Source: an uncultured Candidatus Saccharibacteria bacterium (GTDB taxonomy: Bacteria; Patescibacteriota; Saccharimonadia; Saccharimonadales; CAZWFS01). Taken from it: a stretch of 64,000 nt of DNA. Below are positions 5,322 to 42,140 of the stretch, one piece after another. The position numbers and the translations under genes were made by a program. The DNA lies in the NCBI GenBank assembly GCA_964633325.1, contig CAZWFS010000002.1, forward strand, positions 25,657-89,656. Reading direction: 5' to 3'. The notes beneath the pieces were generated by a model. The model did not search any database. It saw nothing but the letters and a program-made list of their open reading frames with translations, and was not told the DNA's origin. The stretch's first letter is position 1; each line of letters opens with the position of its first letter.

Positions 5322-5700
5322 GCTAGGTTGTCGGCTGATCGCCTGCCCCTGAAAAAGGCGGGAGGAAAGTCCGGGCAGCATAGGGAATGGCAGTTGCTAA
5401 CGGCAACCGGGGGCAACCCTAGGGAAAGTGCCACAGAAACTATACCGCTGGTCCGCAAGGATTGGTAAGGATGAAAAGAGTGGGGTAAGAGCCCACAGTC
5501 TTTGACGGTGACGTCAGAGAGAGGTAAACCCTGCCTGCTGCAAGGAGATGGATCCTTTCGGGCCTAAAGCCCGGAAGTTTCCCGCTGAGGATTCATCATA
5601 AGAACCGCTCGATTCCACTGGCAACAGTGGGACTAGATAGATGATCAGCAAGTCCGCCTAAAAACGGATAAACAAAACCCGGCTTACAGACAACCTAGCG
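5322..5700 (+). ncRNA. rnpB: RNase P RNA, bacterial type A
   Basis: Conserved GGAGGAAAGTCCGGGC, CCACAGAAA and ACAAAACCCGGCTTA blocks. P1 pairs gctaggttgtc (5322-) with gacaacctagc (-5699). Confidence 0.85.
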
Positions 5701-5715
5701 CTAAAACCGAAAACC

Positions 5716-7776: not shown

Positions 7777-7937
7777 GGCTAGAACTCATTTTATGTCAAA
7801 AAGCTGAAAACTAGTAGGGCGAGCGGAAGCCCGTGGGCGATACGCGAGCCTGTGCGTGAGCCCCAGCTCCGCCGCCTGTCAGCCGAAGGCTGACCGCTTG
7901 CGGTCAGAGGCGAAGATTGTAAGCTGCCATGGCTAAA
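7773..7937. repeat. left arm of the ~165-nt inverted repeat bounding the PLP-enzyme cassette
   Basis: Reverse complement of 10336-10594. The first ~95 nt are identical by eye, and the arm starts within the tRNA-Pro ACCA. Confidence 0.85.
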
Positions 7938-31909: not shown

Positions 31910-32132
31910 TTTAGTTTGCAGCTATACGCTAATGTTTATGCAATGAGTATCCGCCCACTATGTATAATTGTCAACACCAACTTTGTGGGGGTAGTTTTCA
32001 AGTCGGATTTCCGAACAGCATTTATATGTGCTTGGGGGCACAGTTACACTAGTCAGTCTGCTTATCTTCTGGCGGTTTAGTCGCAGTACCCTCATCAATA
32101 CCGTCCACTGCCTCTTGAACAAATTTCATATC

Positions 32133-32288
32133 TCACAACGTATCTGGCACATCTTCAAGGATACCCCTTATCCTATTACGTCTGGTCTCAGCCGCTCGTA
32201 GGGCGGCCTCTTCCTTGTCTGTCAGATTTACCTCCTGTGGTACTCCATGCCCCATGCCACGGTTTAGACCGTCATGTGCTTCGTCCAT
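32133..32288 (-). CDS. possible 51-aa small ORF (below the track cutoff)
   Basis: Hand-translated as MDEAHDGLNRGMGHGVPQEV...EDVPDTL. No other support. Confidence 0.2.
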   Translation of the reverse strand: MDEAHDGLNRGMGHGVPQEVNLTDKEEAALRAAETRRNRIRGILEDVPDTL

Positions 32289-32381
32289 GGATTATATTTT
32301 CTAACTATTATTGGAGTTTTGCAAGCAGCAGTGGTATGGGAATATATCAATGACAAGCTTTGGCTTTACGTAATGGAACTA

Positions 32382-32735
32382 TTATATTTCTGTGGGGGTA
32401 AGTAAATGTTCGAGGGCAACTGTAGCAAGTTCGTTTTGTGGGCTAAGAGCTTGTAATCTAGATGCGATCAAGTCAACTGTCACTGATTCGGCGGGACCGG
32501 TAGAGTAGAAATGGTTTGGATCAAGATCATGATTAGCTCTTAAAGCTTCTATGGTCACATTCCGATGTCCCGGCTGCCGGGTAGCAGTCACAATTTGTGG
32601 CGGCTGAACGTCATCTCTCAGGACCCGTAGTACAAAACCAGAGCCTCGTGAACTAGTAAGTTCACGAAAGGTCAGGCCCTCTTGCCACACTTTATTTATC
32701 GCTGAATGATTTCTTGACGTGAAGATACGATACAA
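32382..32735 (-). CDS. hypothetical protein
   Basis: ORF only. Confidence 0.45.
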   Translation of the reverse strand: MYRIFTSRNHSAINKVWQEGLTFRELTSSRGSGFVLRVLRDDVQPPQIVTATRQPGHRNVTIEALRANHDLDPNHFYSTGPAESVTVDLIASRLQALSPQNELATVALEHLLTPTEI

Positions 32736-32786
32736 TAGTTATGAAAGTATGTCTAGTTGTCGAGCCGTAACTTTGGAGGTTTGGGA

Positions 32787-33221
32787 CTATTTTTGCTGTA
32801 GTGCTTCAACGAAGTGCTCGACTTCGTTAAGCCTTGAGTCAAAGTAAGGGTCACCGCCGTCATGAGCTACACTTGCTTGCTGAGCACGCAGAAGCCCCAT
32901 TTCTATATAACCAGACATAGTAAGTACAGTTCGAGTGATTTCGGGATTTGCCCTCCAATGTTCCGGGAGTGCTTCGTGACCAGCAGCAAACATTCCAGCG
33001 AGCACTGTAGTAGATTCGCTTCCTATAGTGTTCAAATCTATACATACACCAAGCGCATCTCTCTCTGGATAGTGTGTGCGAGTTATTTCTGCCGCCCATT
33101 CCATATCTGCTGGGCTCTGTTCGCCAGTACGTGTCAAATGGTCGGCAATTACAGCAATTGGGTCATTTTTATACCCAGCTTCACCTACTAATGGGTCTTG
33201 CGAAGGATCTTTATCTGTCAT
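32787..33221 (-). CDS. hypothetical protein (apparently leaderless)
   Basis: Start set at MTDKD. TATGAT lies 6 nt upstream and TTGACT 17 nt further. Confidence 0.5.
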   Translation of the reverse strand: MTDKDPSQDPLVGEAGYKNDPIAVIADHLTRTGEQSPADMEWAAEITRTHYPERDALGVCIDLNTIGSESTTVLAGMFAAGHEALPEHWRANPEITRTVLTMSGYIEMGLLRAQQASVAHDGGDPYFDSRLNEVEHFVEALQQK

Positions 33222-33227
33222 AAGTAC

Positions 33228-33256
33228 ATCATAGCACAATAATGATACTTAGTCAA
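33228..33256 (-). promoter_or_regulatory. promoter TTGACT-17-TATGAT abutting repeat A
   Basis: Read directly; the -10 is 6 nt from the ATG. Confidence 0.5.
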
Positions 33257-33259
33257 TGC

Positions 33260-33385
33260 GGCGGGCTTGACCGGATTAGTGGACTGCGTCCTTTATCCAT
33301 TCCGGCGTGCTCGGTGCGAGCACCTGCGCGCATCCTCATTCCACGAACCGGCGCCCTTGCGGGCTATGCCGGTTCCAAGTCGCAA
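33260..33385. repeat. repeat A: ~125-nt structured repeat beginning with a tRNA-Asp 3'-end copy
   Basis: Roughly 90% identical by eye to 34526-34647. 33260-33277 matches the tRNA-Asp 3' end at 17 of 18 positions. Confidence 0.85.
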
Positions 33386-33486
33386 GCCGTTACTTTACAA
33401 GCATGAAACTATTTTGTAGAAACACAATCAACAAAACTGCAACTTATCTTTTCTAAGCACGTCGTCAGAGCTTAATCAGCTTCTGG

Positions 33487-34332
33487 CTATTCGCCCGCTG
33501 GTTGTGGGAGTTCAAAATCTTGGTAACGTAGGAACATATGGGCTTCGGTTTGGCGAAGTTTTTTTAGACCGTCAGCAGTTTGAGCAAAGAGGTAATTTCT
33601 TTCTGGTTTGGCAAACTGATAGTTTGGCTTGCTGCTTTGGTCTACTTGTAGGGCAGCCAATGACATGGTCAGACTAGCTTTAGCTCCGTCAAAACCAGCT
33701 TCTTTAGGATTAAAGCCAGGTACCCGTTCTGCATAGGTTTCAACTAATCCTAAAGCCGTCCTGAGTTGGTCAGCGCTACCCCATCTATTTAACTTGTATT
33801 GACCGTCAGCTACAAGTAGCCGGATGGTCTTGGTAGCTTTCGCCAGTACAGCAGGATTTTGTAGTTCGCCTGTATCAACTAATCCATCAAGCTCGCCACC
33901 CACATTAAAATCAACTACATCAGGCCCTGCCTGTACACGCTCAGGTTCAGTCGTACCGCGCATATCTAATGTTACGCTGGTCACGACTTTATCAAAGACA
34001 TCTTTTTCTTCTTCTGGCTTGGCTACATTAGGGGCTTCTTCTGCTAAGATTTCCTTAACTTCACCGTAAGAACGGCGTGCTTCTTGCTTTTTTACAGCTT
34101 CCCATACATTAACTCGCTCGGCTTCACGGTGTCCACCAACTGCTTTTACAATTACTTCCCGTTGAGAACTTAAATTAGCAGTAGTTTGTTCCTGTAAGGC
34201 ACCTTCAAGGAACCCAACCTTTTGCTCATAAAGCTTATCGTCAACGGGTGGCGTAACATTACCGCCAAGCACAGAGGGGTCAGTAGCGGGTGCTTCTTGT
34301 GGAGTTGGATTAGGGGGTAGTGGTTCGCTCAT
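33487..34332 (-). CDS. hypothetical acidic protein
   Basis: A 281-aa ORF with a promoter upstream. Confidence 0.55.
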   Translation of the reverse strand: MSEPLPPNPTPQEAPATDPSVLGGNVTPPVDDKLYEQKVGFLEGALQEQTTANLSSQREVIVKAVGGHREAERVNVWEAVKKQEARRSYGEVKEILAEEAPNVAKPEEEKDVFDKVVTSVTLDMRGTTEPERVQAGPDVVDFNVGGELDGLVDTGELQNPAVLAKATKTIRLLVADGQYKLNRWGSADQLRTALGLVETYAERVPGFNPKEAGFDGAKASLTMSLAALQVDQSSKPNYQFAKPERNYLFAQTADGLKKLRQTEAHMFLRYQDFELPQPAGE

Positions 34333-34379
34333 TGCTTTCTTGTTCCTATATTATTTTTGATTTTTATTAACCTACATGC

Positions 34380-34408
34380 ATACTAGCATTAGCTTGATGA
34401 ATTGTCAA
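34380..34408 (-). promoter_or_regulatory. promoter TTGACA-17-TAGTAT
   Basis: Read directly, ~45 nt upstream of the 34332 start. Confidence 0.5.
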
Positions 34409-34525
34409 GTATACGTAATGGTTCAATAGCTTGGAATCATCCGCAAAGGAGTCCAAGCTATGGACATGAGCTGTCCCAAGAACCCCAACCTATAAGTCCC
34501 CGGGCGTAAAAATCTGAGGTGTTAT

Positions 34526-34647
34526 CGGGCTCGAACGGATTAGCGGACTCCGTCCTTTATCCATTCCGGCGTGCTCGGTGCGAGCACCTGCGCGCATCCT
34601 CATTCCACGAACCGGCGCCCATGCGGGCTATGCCGGCTCTAATCGCA
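34526..34647. repeat. repeat B: second copy of the ~125-nt repeat
   Basis: Aligns with 33260-33385. 34526-34541 matches the tRNA-Asp 3' end at 15 of 16 positions. Confidence 0.85.
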
Positions 34648-34738
34648 GACAAGTTTACCCAAAGTAAAAGCCCTATCACTAGGATAGGACATTTACTTTG
34701 GCGGACTGTTGCGGAACAGGTATGGAACTATTTTGTTG

Positions 34739-35239
34739 TTAGCTCTGAGGTGCTTGACTTACAGACGATTGAACGTCAGAAGTTAACTGTTCTTGCATAG
34801 TTCGCATTGCGACAATATCCTCAACTACGGCCTGCATATCTCGCAAACTATACTCCCCACCAGCGAGTGGGTTATCAAAGGACCCTAACTCTTTGGGTTC
34901 CTGCTCTGGAGTATCGGAGTTTATGCTTGTTACGATAATCGTAGCGTCCTCATTGCTCGTGAACTGACCCATATCCAGAACTTCTGCTTTTATATGTACG
35001 CTCATCTCAGGCACAGTAAGCTCTTTAGGAGGACGAGAGCTGAGTGCGGCCATGGGGACGGATTTTGGCGTGGCGTCTTGCGCTAAGGGGTGCGTCAAGA
35101 TTACATTAGCACGGCCTTTGACGGCGTCTGCACGAGCTTTGGTAAGCTGTTTTTTACCCATTACTTCTAAGCTGTCACGCAAATCCTTAAAAGGATCACG
35201 GTCTGGATTTTCACTTGGACTTTCATGTGTTTGAGTCAT
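34739..35239 (-). CDS. hypothetical acidic protein (apparently leaderless)
   Basis: TAACAT lies 6 nt upstream of the ATG. Confidence 0.5.
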   Translation of the reverse strand: MTQTHESPSENPDRDPFKDLRDSLEVMGKKQLTKARADAVKGRANVILTHPLAQDATPKSVPMAALSSRPPKELTVPEMSVHIKAEVLDMGQFTSNEDATIIVTSINSDTPEQEPKELGSFDNPLAGGEYSLRDMQAVVEDIVAMRTMQEQLTSDVQSSVSQAPQS

Positions 35240-35245
35240 GAATAC

Positions 35246-35274
35246 ATGTTATCATAATATGATAATCTTGTCAA
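35246..35274 (-). promoter_or_regulatory. promoter TTGACA-17-TAACAT abutting the tRNA-Asp 3' fragment
   Basis: Read directly. Confidence 0.5.
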
Positions 35275-35276
35275 CT

Positions 35277-35294
35277 TGGCGGGCTCGACCGGAT
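35277..35294 (-). pseudogene. 18-nt exact copy of the tRNA-Asp 3' end (att-like)
   Basis: tggcgggctcgaccggat is identical to 35466-35483. Confidence 0.75.
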
Positions 35295-35465
35295 GTATAG
35301 CTTCTAGCCGGGTTGGCTATTTTACAAGTAAGGAGTGGCCAACTCGGTTTCGGCATATAATCTCGCTGACCGCTCGATTATGACCCGGCTTTCCCAGGTT
35401 CAAATCACGAGTTGAAACTCGTCCAGAAATAAAACAGCCATCCATAAGGACGGCTACTTTATTTC

Positions 35466-35541
35466 TGGCGGGCTCGACCGGATTTGAACCGGCGATCTCC
35501 TCCGTGACAGGGAGGCGTGATAACCACTTCACTACGAGCCC
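35466..35541 (-). tRNA. tRNA-Asp (anticodon GTC), CCA encoded
   Basis: Acceptor gggctcg/cgagccc, anticodon loop ctGTCac, T-arm gccgg-ttcaaat-ccggt. Confidence 0.9.
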
Positions 35542-35742
35542 TTGTTTACCCCACAAAACAGGTTTTGCGGGGACCCCGATGTCAGAACCGAGGGTCAGCT
35601 TGCACAGAACCAATGAATTGCTTCTGCTCCACCTTCTAGTCGCTTCTTCCTCTCAGTCCTTCAAACAGACAAGTCTTGGTTTGAAGAACTGGCTTAGACC
35701 AGCGACCAAGTAGCAATAGCACAGTAGCGACTTCCATTTACT

Positions 35743-38558: not shown

Positions 38559-40769
38559 CTAAAGCACCGGCGGCATACTGCTGATGGCGTCGTATTTGGT
38601 ACCAGTGGTGGTCGAACTGTAGGAGAACGGGGCTGCCAGCCACATCTCTGGGCTGAAGCTGAAGACCTCGGCTATGCTGGGGTCGGTGGCGGTCTCGGTG
38701 GGGATGCTGGCCCGTAGCGAGCCATTGGTACGCAGCAGCTTGATGGACCTGGCTATGAAGGAGCCATTAACCGTCAGGGCGGCCGGGACTGGGTTGCCGT
38801 CGCACTCGCTCATGAAGGTACCGTCCAGGTCAGGCAGGGCTCCGGTGATGCCGGTCCACTTGGCGCAGGTGTAGATATTGCCGCGGGCATCGGCCGCGTC
38901 CGGCTGGGCCACATAGACCCCGTCCAGCTGGGTGACGTCCTTGTCTATATAGATGTTGCCTTTGGCTATTAGGTAGAAGGATGGGATGTTGGGGGCGGTC
39001 CAGGGCCCGGCGGCATAGGTGATGTTGGCGTCGATGAACACGTCGCCGTCCACGAAGACCTTGGTGGGCGTGGCTGCGGCGGGGATGACCGCTCCTGGGT
39101 GGGAGTATGGGCCGGTGATGATGGGTGCCGGGCCGGAAGTGCCGAAGTAGTTTGGGTTCGGGCAGCGGGAGTCCCTGAAGCCACCGCCGTAAGTTGAGCC
39201 GGCATCGGCCGGGTCACCGGCGTTGGCGAAAGTCAGGCCTTTGGGTGGTGTCGGCTCGGTCGGGCTGGCGGGCCCGGCCCGGCCAGCGGCAGAGCTGAAC
39301 TCCTCTATCTTAGACATAGCCTGGGCAGCCAGCTGGGTAGCGGCGCCGGAACCGTCATCCTTGGCAAAGCCCAGGATGCGGCTGCCGGGTGTGGAGGCGG
39401 AACAGCCGACGCTATTGAACTCTGGCAGGCCGGCTAGGACGTCGCCGCCGTAGACACGGAAGTAAGGTTTGTTGAGCGAACTTAATGGATGACTACATGG
39501 CGGTGTTCCGGGAGGAGTATTGCCTCCGCTGATCGCTATGGTCACCGTATAATTACCGGCCGTAGGTAGGGTAAGGCTGTTAATCGTACCATTAGCGGTC
39601 ACCCCAGGTGGTAAGGGATTGGGCGTGAACGCTACGACAGTGGGTCCGTAGACCCCACCAGAGACAGTTACCGTCATAGTGGCGCCATTAAGGGTACCTC
39701 CGCCTAGGTCATTATTAAAACTCACGTTCAGGTTGAACAACTGGCCCGGATCAACCTCCCCTGGGCTAATGCCACTGCACGAGATGTCCGGGGGGGGCGG
39801 GGGCGCGACGCAAGGCCCAATATTGGTCTCGCCTATGAGGTAAGTTCTATTATCAGGTTCGCCATTCCCCTTGACACCATTGGCGTACACCTTGAAGTTG
39901 TGGACACTACTATCCTTATACATCCCGATAGGTATATTGAACTTATGATTCACGGTACGGAATGTACCTTTGCTTACCCCGTCCAAGAACCAAGTGACGT
40001 CGAAGTCAGCATCCGGATCGTCCGCATCGGACACGGTACCATTCAAGGAGTCACATGTAGAGTTCGGGGTTCCGACGGGAGGGTAAACCACCCCTTCCGG
40101 CCTATCGTTAGGGTTATAAAACACATAAAAGGTTACAGTGCCAGAGTCTCTGCAGGGCGGCGAATAAAACTTCCCGTTTTTGTCTATACAGCTCCAGCCT
40201 GGTGGCAAGTCACTAATCAGTTCCATTTCAAGGATAATCTGATTCTGGCCTTCGCGCAGCTTGGAAACATCAATGTCTATAGGCAGGCTATCACCCCGGG
40301 ACTCGTCTTGAGATATGTTGCCTAGGTTGAACTGGTTACCGCTGGGAAAAGATATTACCCCTGTCTCATTCCACACCCCTGAACCTGGCCAAGAGACGGC
40401 GGAATCATGGATAGCGGTCCTGACATTCCGCCAAGCAGATGCAGATGTGGGTGAAACCCAAGCTACGGATATCATATTCGTACTGATCTTGCGGATATCC
40501 CTGAAAAGTGTGTATTCATCCTGTTCAAGATAGACAAAATTTATCAAATCGTCAGGATATCTATTGTGGGTATCCTGAAAGCACTCCTTAAGCCGTTGAG
40601 GCGCATTGAACCCGGAAGCAATAGCGATATCGTTAATGCTAGGAGTGGTTATGGGGGCGGGATTGCAAGGACCTGTATGATTGGCGTAAGCAGGACGCGC
40701 GGTGGAAAACAAGGCTAGAATTGTAAGCCCGGTACTTATAAAAGCTAACGGCCAAATATACCGCTTCAT
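38559..40769 (-). CDS. large secreted protein, T4P-flanking paralog 1 (variable N-terminus, shared C-terminal domain)
   Basis: Signal peptide. The C-terminal ~282 aa are identical to the 899-aa paralog, with a poly-Pro/Cys linker between the regions. Confidence 0.7.
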   Translation of the reverse strand: MKRYIWPLAFISTGLTILALFSTARPAYANHTGPCNPAPITTPSINDIAIASGFNAPQRLKECFQDTHNRYPDDLINFVYLEQDEYTLFRDIRKISTNMISVAWVSPTSASAWRNVRTAIHDSAVSWPGSGVWNETGVISFPSGNQFNLGNISQDESRGDSLPIDIDVSKLREGQNQIILEMELISDLPPGWSCIDKNGKFYSPPCRDSGTVTFYVFYNPNDRPEGVVYPPVGTPNSTCDSLNGTVSDADDPDADFDVTWFLDGVSKGTFRTVNHKFNIPIGMYKDSSVHNFKVYANGVKGNGEPDNRTYLIGETNIGPCVAPPPPPDISCSGISPGEVDPGQLFNLNVSFNNDLGGGTLNGATMTVTVSGGVYGPTVVAFTPNPLPPGVTANGTINSLTLPTAGNYTVTIAISGGNTPPGTPPCSHPLSSLNKPYFRVYGGDVLAGLPEFNSVGCSASTPGSRILGFAKDDGSGAATQLAAQAMSKIEEFSSAAGRAGPASPTEPTPPKGLTFANAGDPADAGSTYGGGFRDSRCPNPNYFGTSGPAPIITGPYSHPGAVIPAAATPTKVFVDGDVFIDANITYAAGPWTAPNIPSFYLIAKGNIYIDKDVTQLDGVYVAQPDAADARGNIYTCAKWTGITGALPDLDGTFMSECDGNPVPAALTVNGSFIARSIKLLRTNGSLRASIPTETATDPSIAEVFSFSPEMWLAAPFSYSSTTTGTKYDAISSMPPVL
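38629..39474. repeat. 846-bp direct repeat, copy 1
   Basis: Offset of 15,926 nt to 54555-55400. All overlapping track ORFs translate identically in both copies. Confidence 0.9.
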
Positions 40770-41225: not shown

Positions 41226-42140
41226 ATGCTATTCGCTAAAGCTAAGACGACCTTCTTGGAATATTTGGAAATCGAACAGAACCGTTCCCAGAAGACAATC
41301 CGCAATTATGATCATTATTTGACCAGGCTTGATGATTTCGCAGGAGACATCGAAGTTAAGGATATAGACGCGGAACTTATTCGCAAATGGCGACTCTGGC
41401 TGAACCGTCTGGGCACCAATGTGTCAGACGAATTGCAGAAGTCTACACAGAACTATCACTTAATTGCTCTGAGAAGTTTTCTTAAATTCTGTGCCAAGCG
41501 TGATATCCCCGCCCTGCCGGCAGATAAAGTGGAGCTGGGACGCACGATCCGAAAGCAGGTCACTTTTCTCACGCCTGAAGAGCTGGAACGATTATTCGCC
41601 CAGTCGGACATATCTACTCTGCCCGGCCTGCGTGACCGTTCTATTTTGGAGCTGTTGTTCTCCTCCGGCTTGCGTGTGTCGGAGCTAGTGGGACTGGACA
41701 AAGATCATGTTAACCTGAAGCGCCGTGAATTCATGGTGCGAGGTAAAGGCCAGAAAGACCGGCCGATCTTCATCAGCGAAAGGACGGCCGACTGGGTGCA
41801 GCGGTATCTGGATCGTCGCACCGATAACGTCAAGCCACTGTTTATCCGCTTCGGGGGCAACAAGCAGGTTGACCTAAGCGGTAACTATCATCGCCTGACT
41901 GCCCGTAGCGTCCAGCGGATGGTAGCCCGCTACGCCCTGATGGCCGGCATCACTAAGCACGTCAGCCCCCATACTCTCAGGCATAGTTTCGCGACGGACC
42001 TACTCATGAACGGTGCGGATTTGAGAAGCGTCCAGGCTATGCTGGGACATGCTAATATTGCGACTACCCAGATATACACTCACGTCACTGACCCGCATCT
42101 GAAATCCGTACATGAACGTTTCCACGGGAAAAATACCTAA
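41226..42140 (+). CDS. xerC: tyrosine recombinase XerC/XerD family
   Basis: C-terminal catalytic motifs HTLRHSFATDLL...LGHANIATTQIYTHV, and an N-terminal SAM-like domain. Confidence 0.9.
   Translation: MLFAKAKTTFLEYLEIEQNRSQKTIRNYDHYLTRLDDFAGDIEVKDIDAELIRKWRLWLNRLGTNVSDELQKSTQNYHLIALRSFLKFCAKRDIPALPADKVELGRTIRKQVTFLTPEELERLFAQSDISTLPGLRDRSILELLFSSGLRVSELVGLDKDHVNLKRREFMVRGKGQKDRPIFISERTADWVQRYLDRRTDNVKPLFIRFGGNKQVDLSGNYHRLTARSVQRMVARYALMAGITKHVSPHTLRHSFATDLLMNGADLRSVQAMLGHANIATTQIYTHVTDPHLKSVHERFHGKNT

Follow-up and report, generated by a model that had tools for sequence, protein, structure and literature searches.

The DNA analysed here is a stretch of 64,000 nucleotides (nt), referred to below as the window, of contig CAZWFS010000002.1 from an uncultured Candidatus Saccharibacteria bacterium. 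A tRNA-Asp(GTC) gene lies on its minus strand and is followed downstream by an array of six short units, some without any open reading frame (ORF) and others with a single small one. The units are joined at copies of the tRNA 3' end or at sequences ending in it. This array, its junctions and its counterparts in other Saccharibacteria are the subject of the analysis. The units and the features within them are listed in Table 1 in the order in which they are met when moving away from the tRNA in tRNA sense.

Table 1. The tRNA-Asp gene, the units of the array and their features in the window.
Feature	Position	Strand	Length	Remarks
tRNA-Asp(GTC), anchor of the array	35466-35541	-	76 nt	ARAGORN; Rfam tRNA, 70 bits; attB-like 3' end ...GGTTCAAATCCGGTCGAGCCCGCCA
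Unit 1	35465-35277		189 nt	ORF-less: terminator, diverged type B, exact 18-mer
Terminator-type hairpin	35423-35465	-		inverted repeat directly 3' of the tRNA CCA
Type B copy 1, diverged	35295-35422	-		assigned only from an alignment and from 5' features in common (hairpin ACGAG..CTCGT and GATTTGAACCTGG)
Exact 18-nt copy of the tRNA-Asp 3' end	35277-35294	-		closes the ORF-less unit of 189 nt; abuts the ORF166 promoter
Unit 2 (cassette 1)	35276-34699		578 nt	promoter, ORF166, site A
Cassette 1 promoter	35246-35274	-		TTGACA-17-TAACAT, TG-extended -10; -35 begins 2 nt past the CCA; -10 ends 6 nt before ATG 35239
ORF166	34739-35239	-		cargo of cassette 1; pI 4.7
Site A no. 1	34699-34735	-		AAAATAGTTCCATACCTGTTCCGCAACAGTCCGCCA; nhmmer E=1.2e-7; att-type end of cassette 1, after ORF166
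Unit 3	34698-34523		176 nt	ORF-less: terminator, type B, decayed 18-mer
Terminator hairpin	34659-34698	-		inverted repeat and terminator-like scan match directly past site A no. 1
Type B copy 2	34524-34662	-		with CGCCGGTTCG, 67-nt insert and decayed 18-mer; profile E=3e-30
Unit 4	34522-33259		1264 nt	ORF281 with promoter and leader of its own; degenerate site A joined to type B; 18-mer
Promoter of the ORF281 module	34380-34408	-		TTGACA-17-TAGTAT, followed by a 47-nt leader with AGGAA
ORF281	33487-34332	-		sole conserved cargo gene
Site A no. 2, degenerate	33385-33416	-		AAAATAGTTTCATGCTTGTAAAGTAACGGCTTGCGA; nhmmer E=0.05; after ORF281; fused to type B copy 3
Type B copy 3	33260-33400	-		ends in the 18-mer 33259-33276; profile E=8e-28; 94% identical to copy 2
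Unit 5 (cassette 4)	33258-32759		500 nt	promoter, ORF144, site A
Cassette 4 promoter	33228-33256	-		TTGACT-17-TATGAT with TG; -35 begins 2 nt past the 18-mer; -10 ends 6 nt before ATG 33221
ORF144	32787-33221	-		cargo of cassette 4; TAG stop inside site A
Site A no. 3	32759-32793	-		AAAATAGTCCCAAACCTCCAAAGTTACGGCTCGACA; nhmmer E=7e-7; over the ORF144 stop
Unit 6 (cassette 5)	32758-~32351		~408 nt	ORF117, decayed site
ORF117 with weak promoter	32382-32755	-		promoter TAGACA-17-TATCGT (32755-32727); start codon uncertain
Decayed site A-like remnant	32351-32387	-		ATAATAGTTCCATTACGTAAAGCCAAAGCTTGTCA; after ORF117; exact core at 32373-32385; below the nhmmer threshold

The 18-nt 3' terminus of tRNA-Asp, ATCCGGTCGAGCCCGCCA, was found four times in the 64 kb at up to 3 mismatches, where 0.06 matches are expected, and none of 100 shuffles gave four. 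All four matches are at the tRNA-Asp locus, namely in the tRNA itself and at 35277-35294 (0 mismatches), 34523-34540 (3 mismatches) and 33259-33276 (2 mismatches). The repeated tRNA 3' ends on which an earlier, sequence-only reading of this DNA was founded are thus real, and they are not a common sequence in the window, which has no match outside the locus. Comparable 3'-end copies were absent for the other five tRNAs of the window. GC content and skew are unremarkable between 31 and 36 kb, so there is no compositional island. The same reading took the 18-mers as the boundaries of the units, and in this it has to be corrected. The recurrent attachment (att) site is a different sequence of 36 nt, here called site A, while the 18-mers belong to a separate non-coding module, here called type B, which explains all three copies.

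Site A, AAATAGTTCCAnACCTGnnnnGcTAcGGCCCGCCA, is conserved over its 36 nt and its last 9 nt are the 3' end of tRNA-Asp. The motif AWAATAGTTYCAT is present in exactly three minus-strand copies in the window, one shortly after each of the stop codons of ORF117, ORF281 and ORF166; allowing one mismatch gives 4 matches against 0.38 expected. The recurrence of this motif past stop codons had been recognised before and attributed to modular duplication. The recurrence stands but the explanation was incomplete, the motif being the core of site A. The remnant after ORF117 is the probable distal end of the recognisable array.

An nhmmer profile built from 35 sites detected 145 copies of site A in 75 Saccharibacteria loci (cited below by L numbers), with one to five copies per locus. 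Site A has the orientation of tRNA-Asp in every mapped locus, and it lies downstream of the tRNA on all contigs that include this gene. The flanks of site A are unrelated between units whereas the 36 nt are conserved. Between CCA junctions 117 units could be delimited, with a median length of 731 nt and a range of 255-7368 nt. Sense coding exceeds antisense coding in nearly all of them (110/117) and an ORF stop codon lies inside site A in 64/117; in the cases inspected this stop is the TAG or TAA of AAATAG or AAATAA. The motif of the degenerate site A no. 2 also follows the ORF281 homologs of L012, L005 and L002. Inspection of the alignment of the 35 sites revealed no attC-type inverted repeats or dyad, no GTTRRRY and no dif-like 11-6-11 dyad, and site A was rejected as an integron attC or a dif-like site on these grounds. 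Two loci, L027 and L044, come from metagenome-assembled genomes (MAGs) labelled Limnocylindria and Sulfotelmatobacter, yet carry the tRNA-Asp/site A array, and L027 also has the flanking tRNA-Gly/Thr arrangement of other loci; both are probably mis-binned.

Contigs that encode relatives of ORF281, combined with a pattern scan across genomes, place the window in Candidatus Saccharibacteria. The 75 loci carry differing sets of cassettes. Comparison with relatives shows abundant presence/absence polymorphism exactly at the unit boundaries, which refutes a conserved synteny free of insertions and deletions and supports the earlier proposal that the repeats were left by successive site-specific insertions at tRNA-Asp. 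The gene order of L012-14 runs NDK, tRNA-Arg, bPH, PpiC, tRNA-Asp, ORF281 homolog and aminotransferase, with a single unit and with neither an ORF166 unit nor type B, while in L011 and L146 the units differ or stand in another order. The same cassette can also occupy different positions in different arrays (L098 c0 = L123 c3; L076 c0 = L141 c2; L102 c0 = L121 c1). Homology between shared cassettes stops at the junctions. For the MazE-PIN cassette shared by L076 and L141, it extends from the TTGACA just past the CCA through the cassette's own site A end, and between L068 and L143 it starts at the preceding site A and stops just short of the next. A homolog of ORF144 (63%) is the first cassette after tRNA-Asp and type B in L146, with the same promoter-to-ATG geometry and with its stop inside site A, whereas ORF144 is the fourth unit in the window. 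The remark that the units are tiny and without an integrase is correct for the window but does not describe a local anomaly, since this is the norm of a lineage-wide array.

The cargo is highly diverse. Clustering of the 256 cassette ORFs gave 224 groups, among them 197 singletons. Recurring cassettes encode type II toxin-antitoxin pairs (YafQ/ParE with a ribbon-helix-helix protein, MazE with PIN, found twice, and CopG-type pairs) and GNAT acetyltransferases. In L106 (6120-6250) a tRNA-Gly(acc) gene lies within the array just upstream of site A, like tRNA cargo.

Two further observations concern the tRNA-Asp gene and its surroundings. In L090 (5956-6497, tRNA-sense orientation) tRNA-Asp is interrupted by 524 nt of inserted sequence, at whose ends lies a 43-nt duplication beginning in the anticodon loop. 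The insert has an ORF that appears GNAT-like by eye and represents another class of insertion at the same tRNA. The segment 21364-35541, comprising tRNA-Asp and the array between PpiC and tRNA-Thr/Gly, is as a whole inverted in some species compared with others (comparison with L004, L027, L046, L057, L065, L069 and L089).

The three promoters claimed by the sequence-only reading are the best three sigma-70-type matches in 32000-35700, each with 10 of 12 positions matching and a TG-extended -10. The spacing of 6 nt from the -10 to the ATG was also borne out for the first and third promoters (ATGs 35239 and 33221), a geometry compatible with leaderless mRNAs. At the second promoter, homology of the ORF281 module to relatives begins at 34408-34423. 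What could not be upheld is that the abutting promoter is peculiar to the 18-mer copies, as it is a widespread native junction after the true tRNA-Asp CCA in the lineage. A genome scan found true tRNA-Asp genes with TTGAC 0-5 nt past the CCA in about 28 Saccharibacteria species; these loci were picked by the search pattern itself (TTGAC after the 18-mer) and are biased for TTGAC frequency, only the metagenome set being unbiased. In the unbiased loci, a strict TTGAC lies no more than 8 nt past the CCA at 10/26 tRNA-Asp genes and 16/93 site A copies, and many further junctions have near-consensus variants of the -35 at the same place. The remaining junctions start with a terminator hairpin, a AGCATAAGCA motif or the 3' end of a recombinase gene. 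The junction of CCA and hairpin, after tRNA-Asp or after site A, recurs in L011, L046, L059, L070, L106, L118 and L146. In seven genomes, the window included, an insert of 117-6387 nt lies between the tRNA and an exact 18-mer with its promoter (TTGAC).

A candidate for the cognate recombinase suggested as something to look for is present in relatives, though not in the window. In L059 a 6.4-kb insert has the gene for a large serine recombinase (LSR) of 520 aa directly past the tRNA-Asp CCA and reading into the tRNA; beyond it come cargo genes for a winged helix-turn-helix protein and a Ser/Thr kinase and then a terminal site A. The LSR has the domains Resolvase PF00239 (5e-15), Recombinase PF07508 (7e-11) and Zn_ribbon_recom PF13408 (4e-5), the last scoring 24.3 bits, just below the Pfam cut-off of 25.3 bits. 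Comparison of five ORFs of this element with Pfam identified these three proteins and no replication genes. In L132 a site A in mid-array is followed by an LSR of 538 aa (68% identity to that of L059), cargo and another site A. Both proteins fall within the definition of a large serine recombinase, which comprises Resolvase, Recombinase and zinc ribbon in about 450-700 aa. Incomplete genes are also found: a C-terminal fragment lies directly past site A in L129, a partial gene about 380 nt downstream of site A in L126, and C-terminal remnants directly past tRNA-Asp in L137 and in L012-14, where 48 codons are left at 75% identity, as well as within the L116 array. In seven loci the CCA of tRNA-Asp or of a site A is directly adjoined by an LSR gene or by a C-terminal remnant of one. 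The sequence of L132 is a complete metagenome contig of 5852 nt with an exact terminal overlap of 123 nt. It probably represents a 5729-bp circle with the LSR and three cassettes, in which site A-CCA and the 3' end of the LSR gene meet, the arrangement expected of attP.

The non-coding module is more difficult to place. Type B is ORF-less and 120-190 nt long, and it is made up of a terminator, a dyad-rich segment of 120-150 nt and the 18-mer, which spans the tRNA from T-loop to CCA. In the window, copies 2 and 3 of the 18-mer end a structured repeat of 117-140 nt, of which 117 nt form a direct repeat (33262-33378 and 34526-34642, 94% identity). Read in tRNA sense, the module starts with CGCCGGTTCG, which is the 5' strand of the tRNA-Asp T-stem and the start of the T-loop, continues with 67 nt of other sequence and finishes with AATCCGGTC.AGCCCGCC, corresponding to the remainder of the T-loop and to the 3' strands of T-stem and acceptor. 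A profile search found type B in 11 genomes; copy 1 of the window was missed by this profile at E<=0.01 and its assignment is weak. The context of the module is invariant, with the CCA of a tRNA or site A followed by a terminator hairpin, type B, the 18-mer and, usually, a promoter. Type B varies widely between genomes although the two window copies are 94% alike. RNAalifold applied to 8 copies, two of them near-identical, gave 20 pairs of which 7 have double-sided changes, mainly in one central hairpin, which is suggestive of covariation there. The repeats have no Rfam match at gathering thresholds or at E<=10 and ARAGORN reports no tRNA or tmRNA in them. A tRNA with an intron and a tmRNA-like gene were both rejected as explanations, as the module contains no more of tRNA-Asp than its 3' third, interrupted by 51-81 nt and placed between a terminator and a promoter. 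This position of the module between terminator and promoter is also why a role at the DNA level is favoured. Type B could be a displaced native flank of the attachment site, an ORF-less unit using a crossover in the T-loop, or a site for an accessory factor.

A GC-rich stretch rich in 'gcgagcg' directly 3' of tRNA-Pro(ggg), at 7777-7900 of the window, recalls the 5' part of type B; the type B profile has no match there. The Logan assembly of the source genome (L001 1-1254) breaks exactly within both copies of the 117-nt repeat. Since this repeat fragments short-read assemblies, the arrays are likely to be under-assembled in MAGs.

The cargo genes of the window gave no matches in Pfam and PHROG scans. 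Their products had been described as acidic, and this applies to all (pI, the isoelectric point, 4.6-4.9) except that of ORF117 at 6.5. ORF166 is a strict orphan, finding only itself among 5.8 billion proteins, ORF144 belongs to a family of 4 (with three relatives) and ORF117 has no homolog among the fetched loci. ORF281 belongs to a family of 21 proteins of 49-100% identity, which occurs in several mobile contexts. In L009, for instance, the homolog is the cargo of a 3.6-kb element at tRNA-Pro with a serine recombinase of 531 aa. The AlphaFold model of ORF281 is of high confidence (pLDDT 86, pTM 0.82) and all-alpha with a disordered N-terminus, and the predicted fold has no significant match in PDB or BFVD. 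ORF281 may therefore, on the strength of this model, represent a new fold family travelling on small mobile units. A unit with an ORF281 homolog, consisting of a 147-aa ORF, ORF293 and a site A-like end, was also seen away from tRNA-Asp in L005 (9289-11047) and L006. It is flanked by a perfect 31-bp direct repeat, and one Logan contig closes on this repeat.

Taken together, the observations are best accounted for if the window contains a recombinase-less stretch of a tRNA-Asp-anchored cassette array, the array type being found across Saccharibacteria; we put the probability of this reading at about 0.7. The array has very probably been built by site-specific recombination at the CCA junction. 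Each unit opens right after a '...GCCCGCCA' junction, supplied either by the tRNA 3' end or by the end of the preceding unit, usually with a sigma-70-type promoter of its own, which is followed by one or a few small co-oriented ORFs and a terminal site A. The attP-like 'site A-CCA' of a circular element would recombine with the attB-like CCA end of tRNA-Asp. As the incoming unit brings its own ...GCCCGCCA, the tRNA would stay intact and the junction would be retained and could in principle be targeted again. Units would then stack, with older ones displaced distally and, we infer, the newest nearest the tRNA.

The adjacency of its gene to the junctions makes the LSR a plausible enzyme for the array, and on balance the preferred one. 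It would be supplied by autonomous family members such as those in L059 and L132, and the mini-cassettes of the window (ORF166, ORF281, ORF144 and ORF117), having no LSR, would be mobilised in trans or would now be fixed. That mini-cassettes move independently, as the shuffling of cassettes and the one apparently circular contig suggest, is slightly less likely than not. A mechanistic precedent is provided by the Ccr serine recombinases, which move the tandem cassettes found downstream of rlmH one at a time or together, neighbours outside SCCmec included, with ccr itself residing in SCCmec (10.1101/2023.03.17.533233).

Several points weigh against a cassette array driven in this way. The att sites of LSRs normally consist of two related half-sites, and in the array the stretch on the right of the CCA differs greatly from junction to junction, being a TTGAC promoter, a terminator or the 3' end of an LSR gene. 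Variable sequence on the right of the crossover is awkward for the canonical LSR mechanism. Excision is backed by a single circular contig, L132, which a tandem duplication could mimic, and no single-cassette circles were found among the contigs. Apart from a conserved Xer-like gene at 41226-42131, the 64-kb window is free of recombinase genes. Of the four sites in the window two are degenerate, one at E=0.05 and the other below threshold. Site A had 0 matches in viral contigs and the junction pattern had 2, and neither is informative on a phage or plasmid origin. Finally, type B is not explained by the model.

The alternative that survives best is decay alone. The array would then be debris of full-size LSR elements that inserted repeatedly at tRNA-Asp and lost the recombinase and most other genes by deletion, and its mini-units would never have been mobile themselves. 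Full elements of 4-6 kb do exist, LSR C-terminal remnants lie beside tRNA-Asp (L012-14 and L137) and in the L116 array, and tycheposon islands have been described as gathering degenerate elements and partial tRNAs (10.1101/2020.12.28.424599). We nevertheless regard decay as unlikely. Random deletion would not leave promoters 0-8 nt past the CCA at many junctions, embed stop codons in site A in more than half of the units or give identical cassettes with precise boundaries at different array positions. Moreover, the genes of the L059 LSR element run against the direction of the tRNA, whereas in 110/117 units the cassette ORFs follow it.

A tyrosine recombinase could instead drive the array in the manner of integrons or pdif modules, either the Xer-like enzyme or an integrase not seen here, with the LSR elements as mere passengers at the same hotspot. 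The Xer-like gene invites this proposal, since it is a few kb from tRNA-Asp and syntenic in many genomes (Xer-NDK-tRNA-Arg-bPH-PpiC-tRNA-Asp). Tyrosine recombinases also tolerate short identity cores such as GGCCCGCCA, and the scale and cargo of the cassettes are integron-like. However, the 300-aa Xer-like protein is 65-82% conserved, as for a housekeeping dif recombinase, and genomes with the inverted array have tRNA-Thr/Gly as neighbours. Site A, on inspection, lacks attC repeats, GTTRRRY and a dif-like dyad, and no recombinase other than the LSR has a gene that abuts CCA junctions and an element that ends in site A. A tyrosine recombinase is quite improbable as the driver. A third idea, that site A and type B are 3'-untranslated or tRNA-like RNA elements in a hypervariable region grown by local duplication, would suit the location of site A at or over stop codons, often followed by a terminator, and the double-sided changes in 7/20 predicted pairs of the type B hairpin in 8 sequences, but can be set aside as most improbable given the lack of an Rfam family and of a conserved pairing partner for site A, the identity of the site A 3' end with the DNA end of the tRNA, its abutting recombinase genes and its part in the circular-contig junction, the unrelated cassette proteins (197 singletons), which cannot stem from duplication, and the location of type B between terminator and next promoter.

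Elsewhere in the window, a bacterial RNase P RNA of class A (5323-5702, 254 bits) is an ordinary housekeeping RNA, and the GC content rises to 0.62-0.68 at 38600-39600, just past the NDK gene, against a background of about 0.48.

The genomes of Saccharibacteria and other Patescibacteria are tiny and thought to be poor in classical mobile elements, and how these bacteria acquire accessory genes and reshuffle them is largely unexplained. A precisely bounded array at one tRNA, in at least 75 loci and many species, offers a concrete and testable route of gene flux in this lineage. It is possible, rather than probable, that the array amounts to a gene-capture platform of the Saccharibacteria, a functional analogue of the integron made from other parts: an LSR would use a 36-bp attP-type site to insert sub-kb, promoter-bearing cassettes, many of them with a leaderless ORF, at the tRNA-Asp CCA, the target would be regenerated, the array would grow outward and type B would serve as an accessory or landing site at the DNA level. 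If true, this would be a second, independently evolved solution of the integron type, in which the enzyme is a serine recombinase, the sites are short and defined by sequence, and the cassettes drive their own expression. Site A, with its 36 nt, is a probe with which the cassette metagenome of the phylum may be mined, and the pair of recombinase and site might be developed into a genetic tool for these organisms, which became tractable only recently. No published description of the tRNA-Asp cassette locus was found in the literature covered, which was incomplete.

The array can be compared with several known systems. It shares with integrons a fixed insertion point, co-oriented arrays of units of roughly 0.3-1.5 kb with one or a few ORFs, a site at or over the stop codon, a cargo of orphans, toxin-antitoxin pairs and acetyltransferases, and the presence of the same cassette at different array positions. 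The differences are considerable. No IntI was seen beside the array, for which no dedicated IntI hidden Markov model was run; the one tyrosine recombinase detected is the Xer-like gene several kb away, and the upstream neighbours are PpiC/bPH/tRNA-Arg/NDK or tRNA-Thr/Gly. Site A is conserved in sequence and ends in tRNA sequence, whereas attC is defined by structure (R''/L''/L'/R', GTTRRRY). The anchor is a tRNA gene rather than attI, the associated recombinase is of the serine type, and many cassettes have their own promoter abutting the junction whereas those of integrons are in general promoterless and depend on the common promoter Pc.

With staphylococcal cassette chromosome (SCC) elements the array has in common a large serine recombinase (likeness at the level of the class) and insertion at the 3' end of a conserved gene that is left intact, an intact tRNA-Asp being found upstream of every array with the tRNA on the contig. 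Both consist of tandem units between repeated att sequences, including units without a recombinase, which here are the majority. SCC cassettes are excised singly or combined (10.1101/2023.03.17.533233), with which the probable L132 circle of an LSR and three cassettes may be compared. The target is rlmH there and tRNA-Asp here, the host lineage is Saccharibacteria, and the units are of about 0.7 kb in contrast to tandem cassettes of about 17 and 26 kb (10.1101/2023.03.17.533233). The att site of the array, of 36 nt, has a long element-specific arm.

Tycheposons also integrate at tRNAs, new elements push older ones inward, and fragmented integrases and partial tRNA repeats accumulate (10.1101/2020.12.28.424599). 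They are likewise cargo elements in a streamlined genome otherwise without common mobile elements (10.1101/2020.12.28.424599). They mostly have a lineage-specific tyrosine recombinase (910/937), with a minority having LSRs, and are kb-scale elements with replication hallmark genes (10.1101/2020.12.28.424599). The array differs from them in its mini-cassettes with a dedicated 36-nt site and in an LSR that reads outward into the tRNA. Modules bounded by pdif sites and integrative mobile elements exploiting Xer (IMEX) are similar in being small, bounded by short recombination sites and without a recombinase of their own; here, however, site A is not dif-like, all modules point the same way at a tRNA and they are associated with an LSR that is encoded by an element. 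Work on ICESt1 and cis-mobilisable elements (CIMEs) of Streptococcus thermophilus reportedly describes att-flanked units without recombination genes, which stand in tandem beside autonomous relatives and are presumed to depend on mobilisation in trans. Such recombinase-less units beside autonomous relatives at one attachment site resemble those described here, although CIMEs are said to be few, kb-scale derivatives of integrative and conjugative elements with tyrosine integrases and to form no sub-kb promoter-bearing arrays. By analogy, then, the array appears integron-like in scale, orientation, cargo and the site at the stop codon, and most like SCC elements, then tycheposons, in its likely mechanism, and it is set apart from SCC elements and tycheposons by its sub-kb promoter-bearing units, its dedicated 36-nt site and its host lineage.

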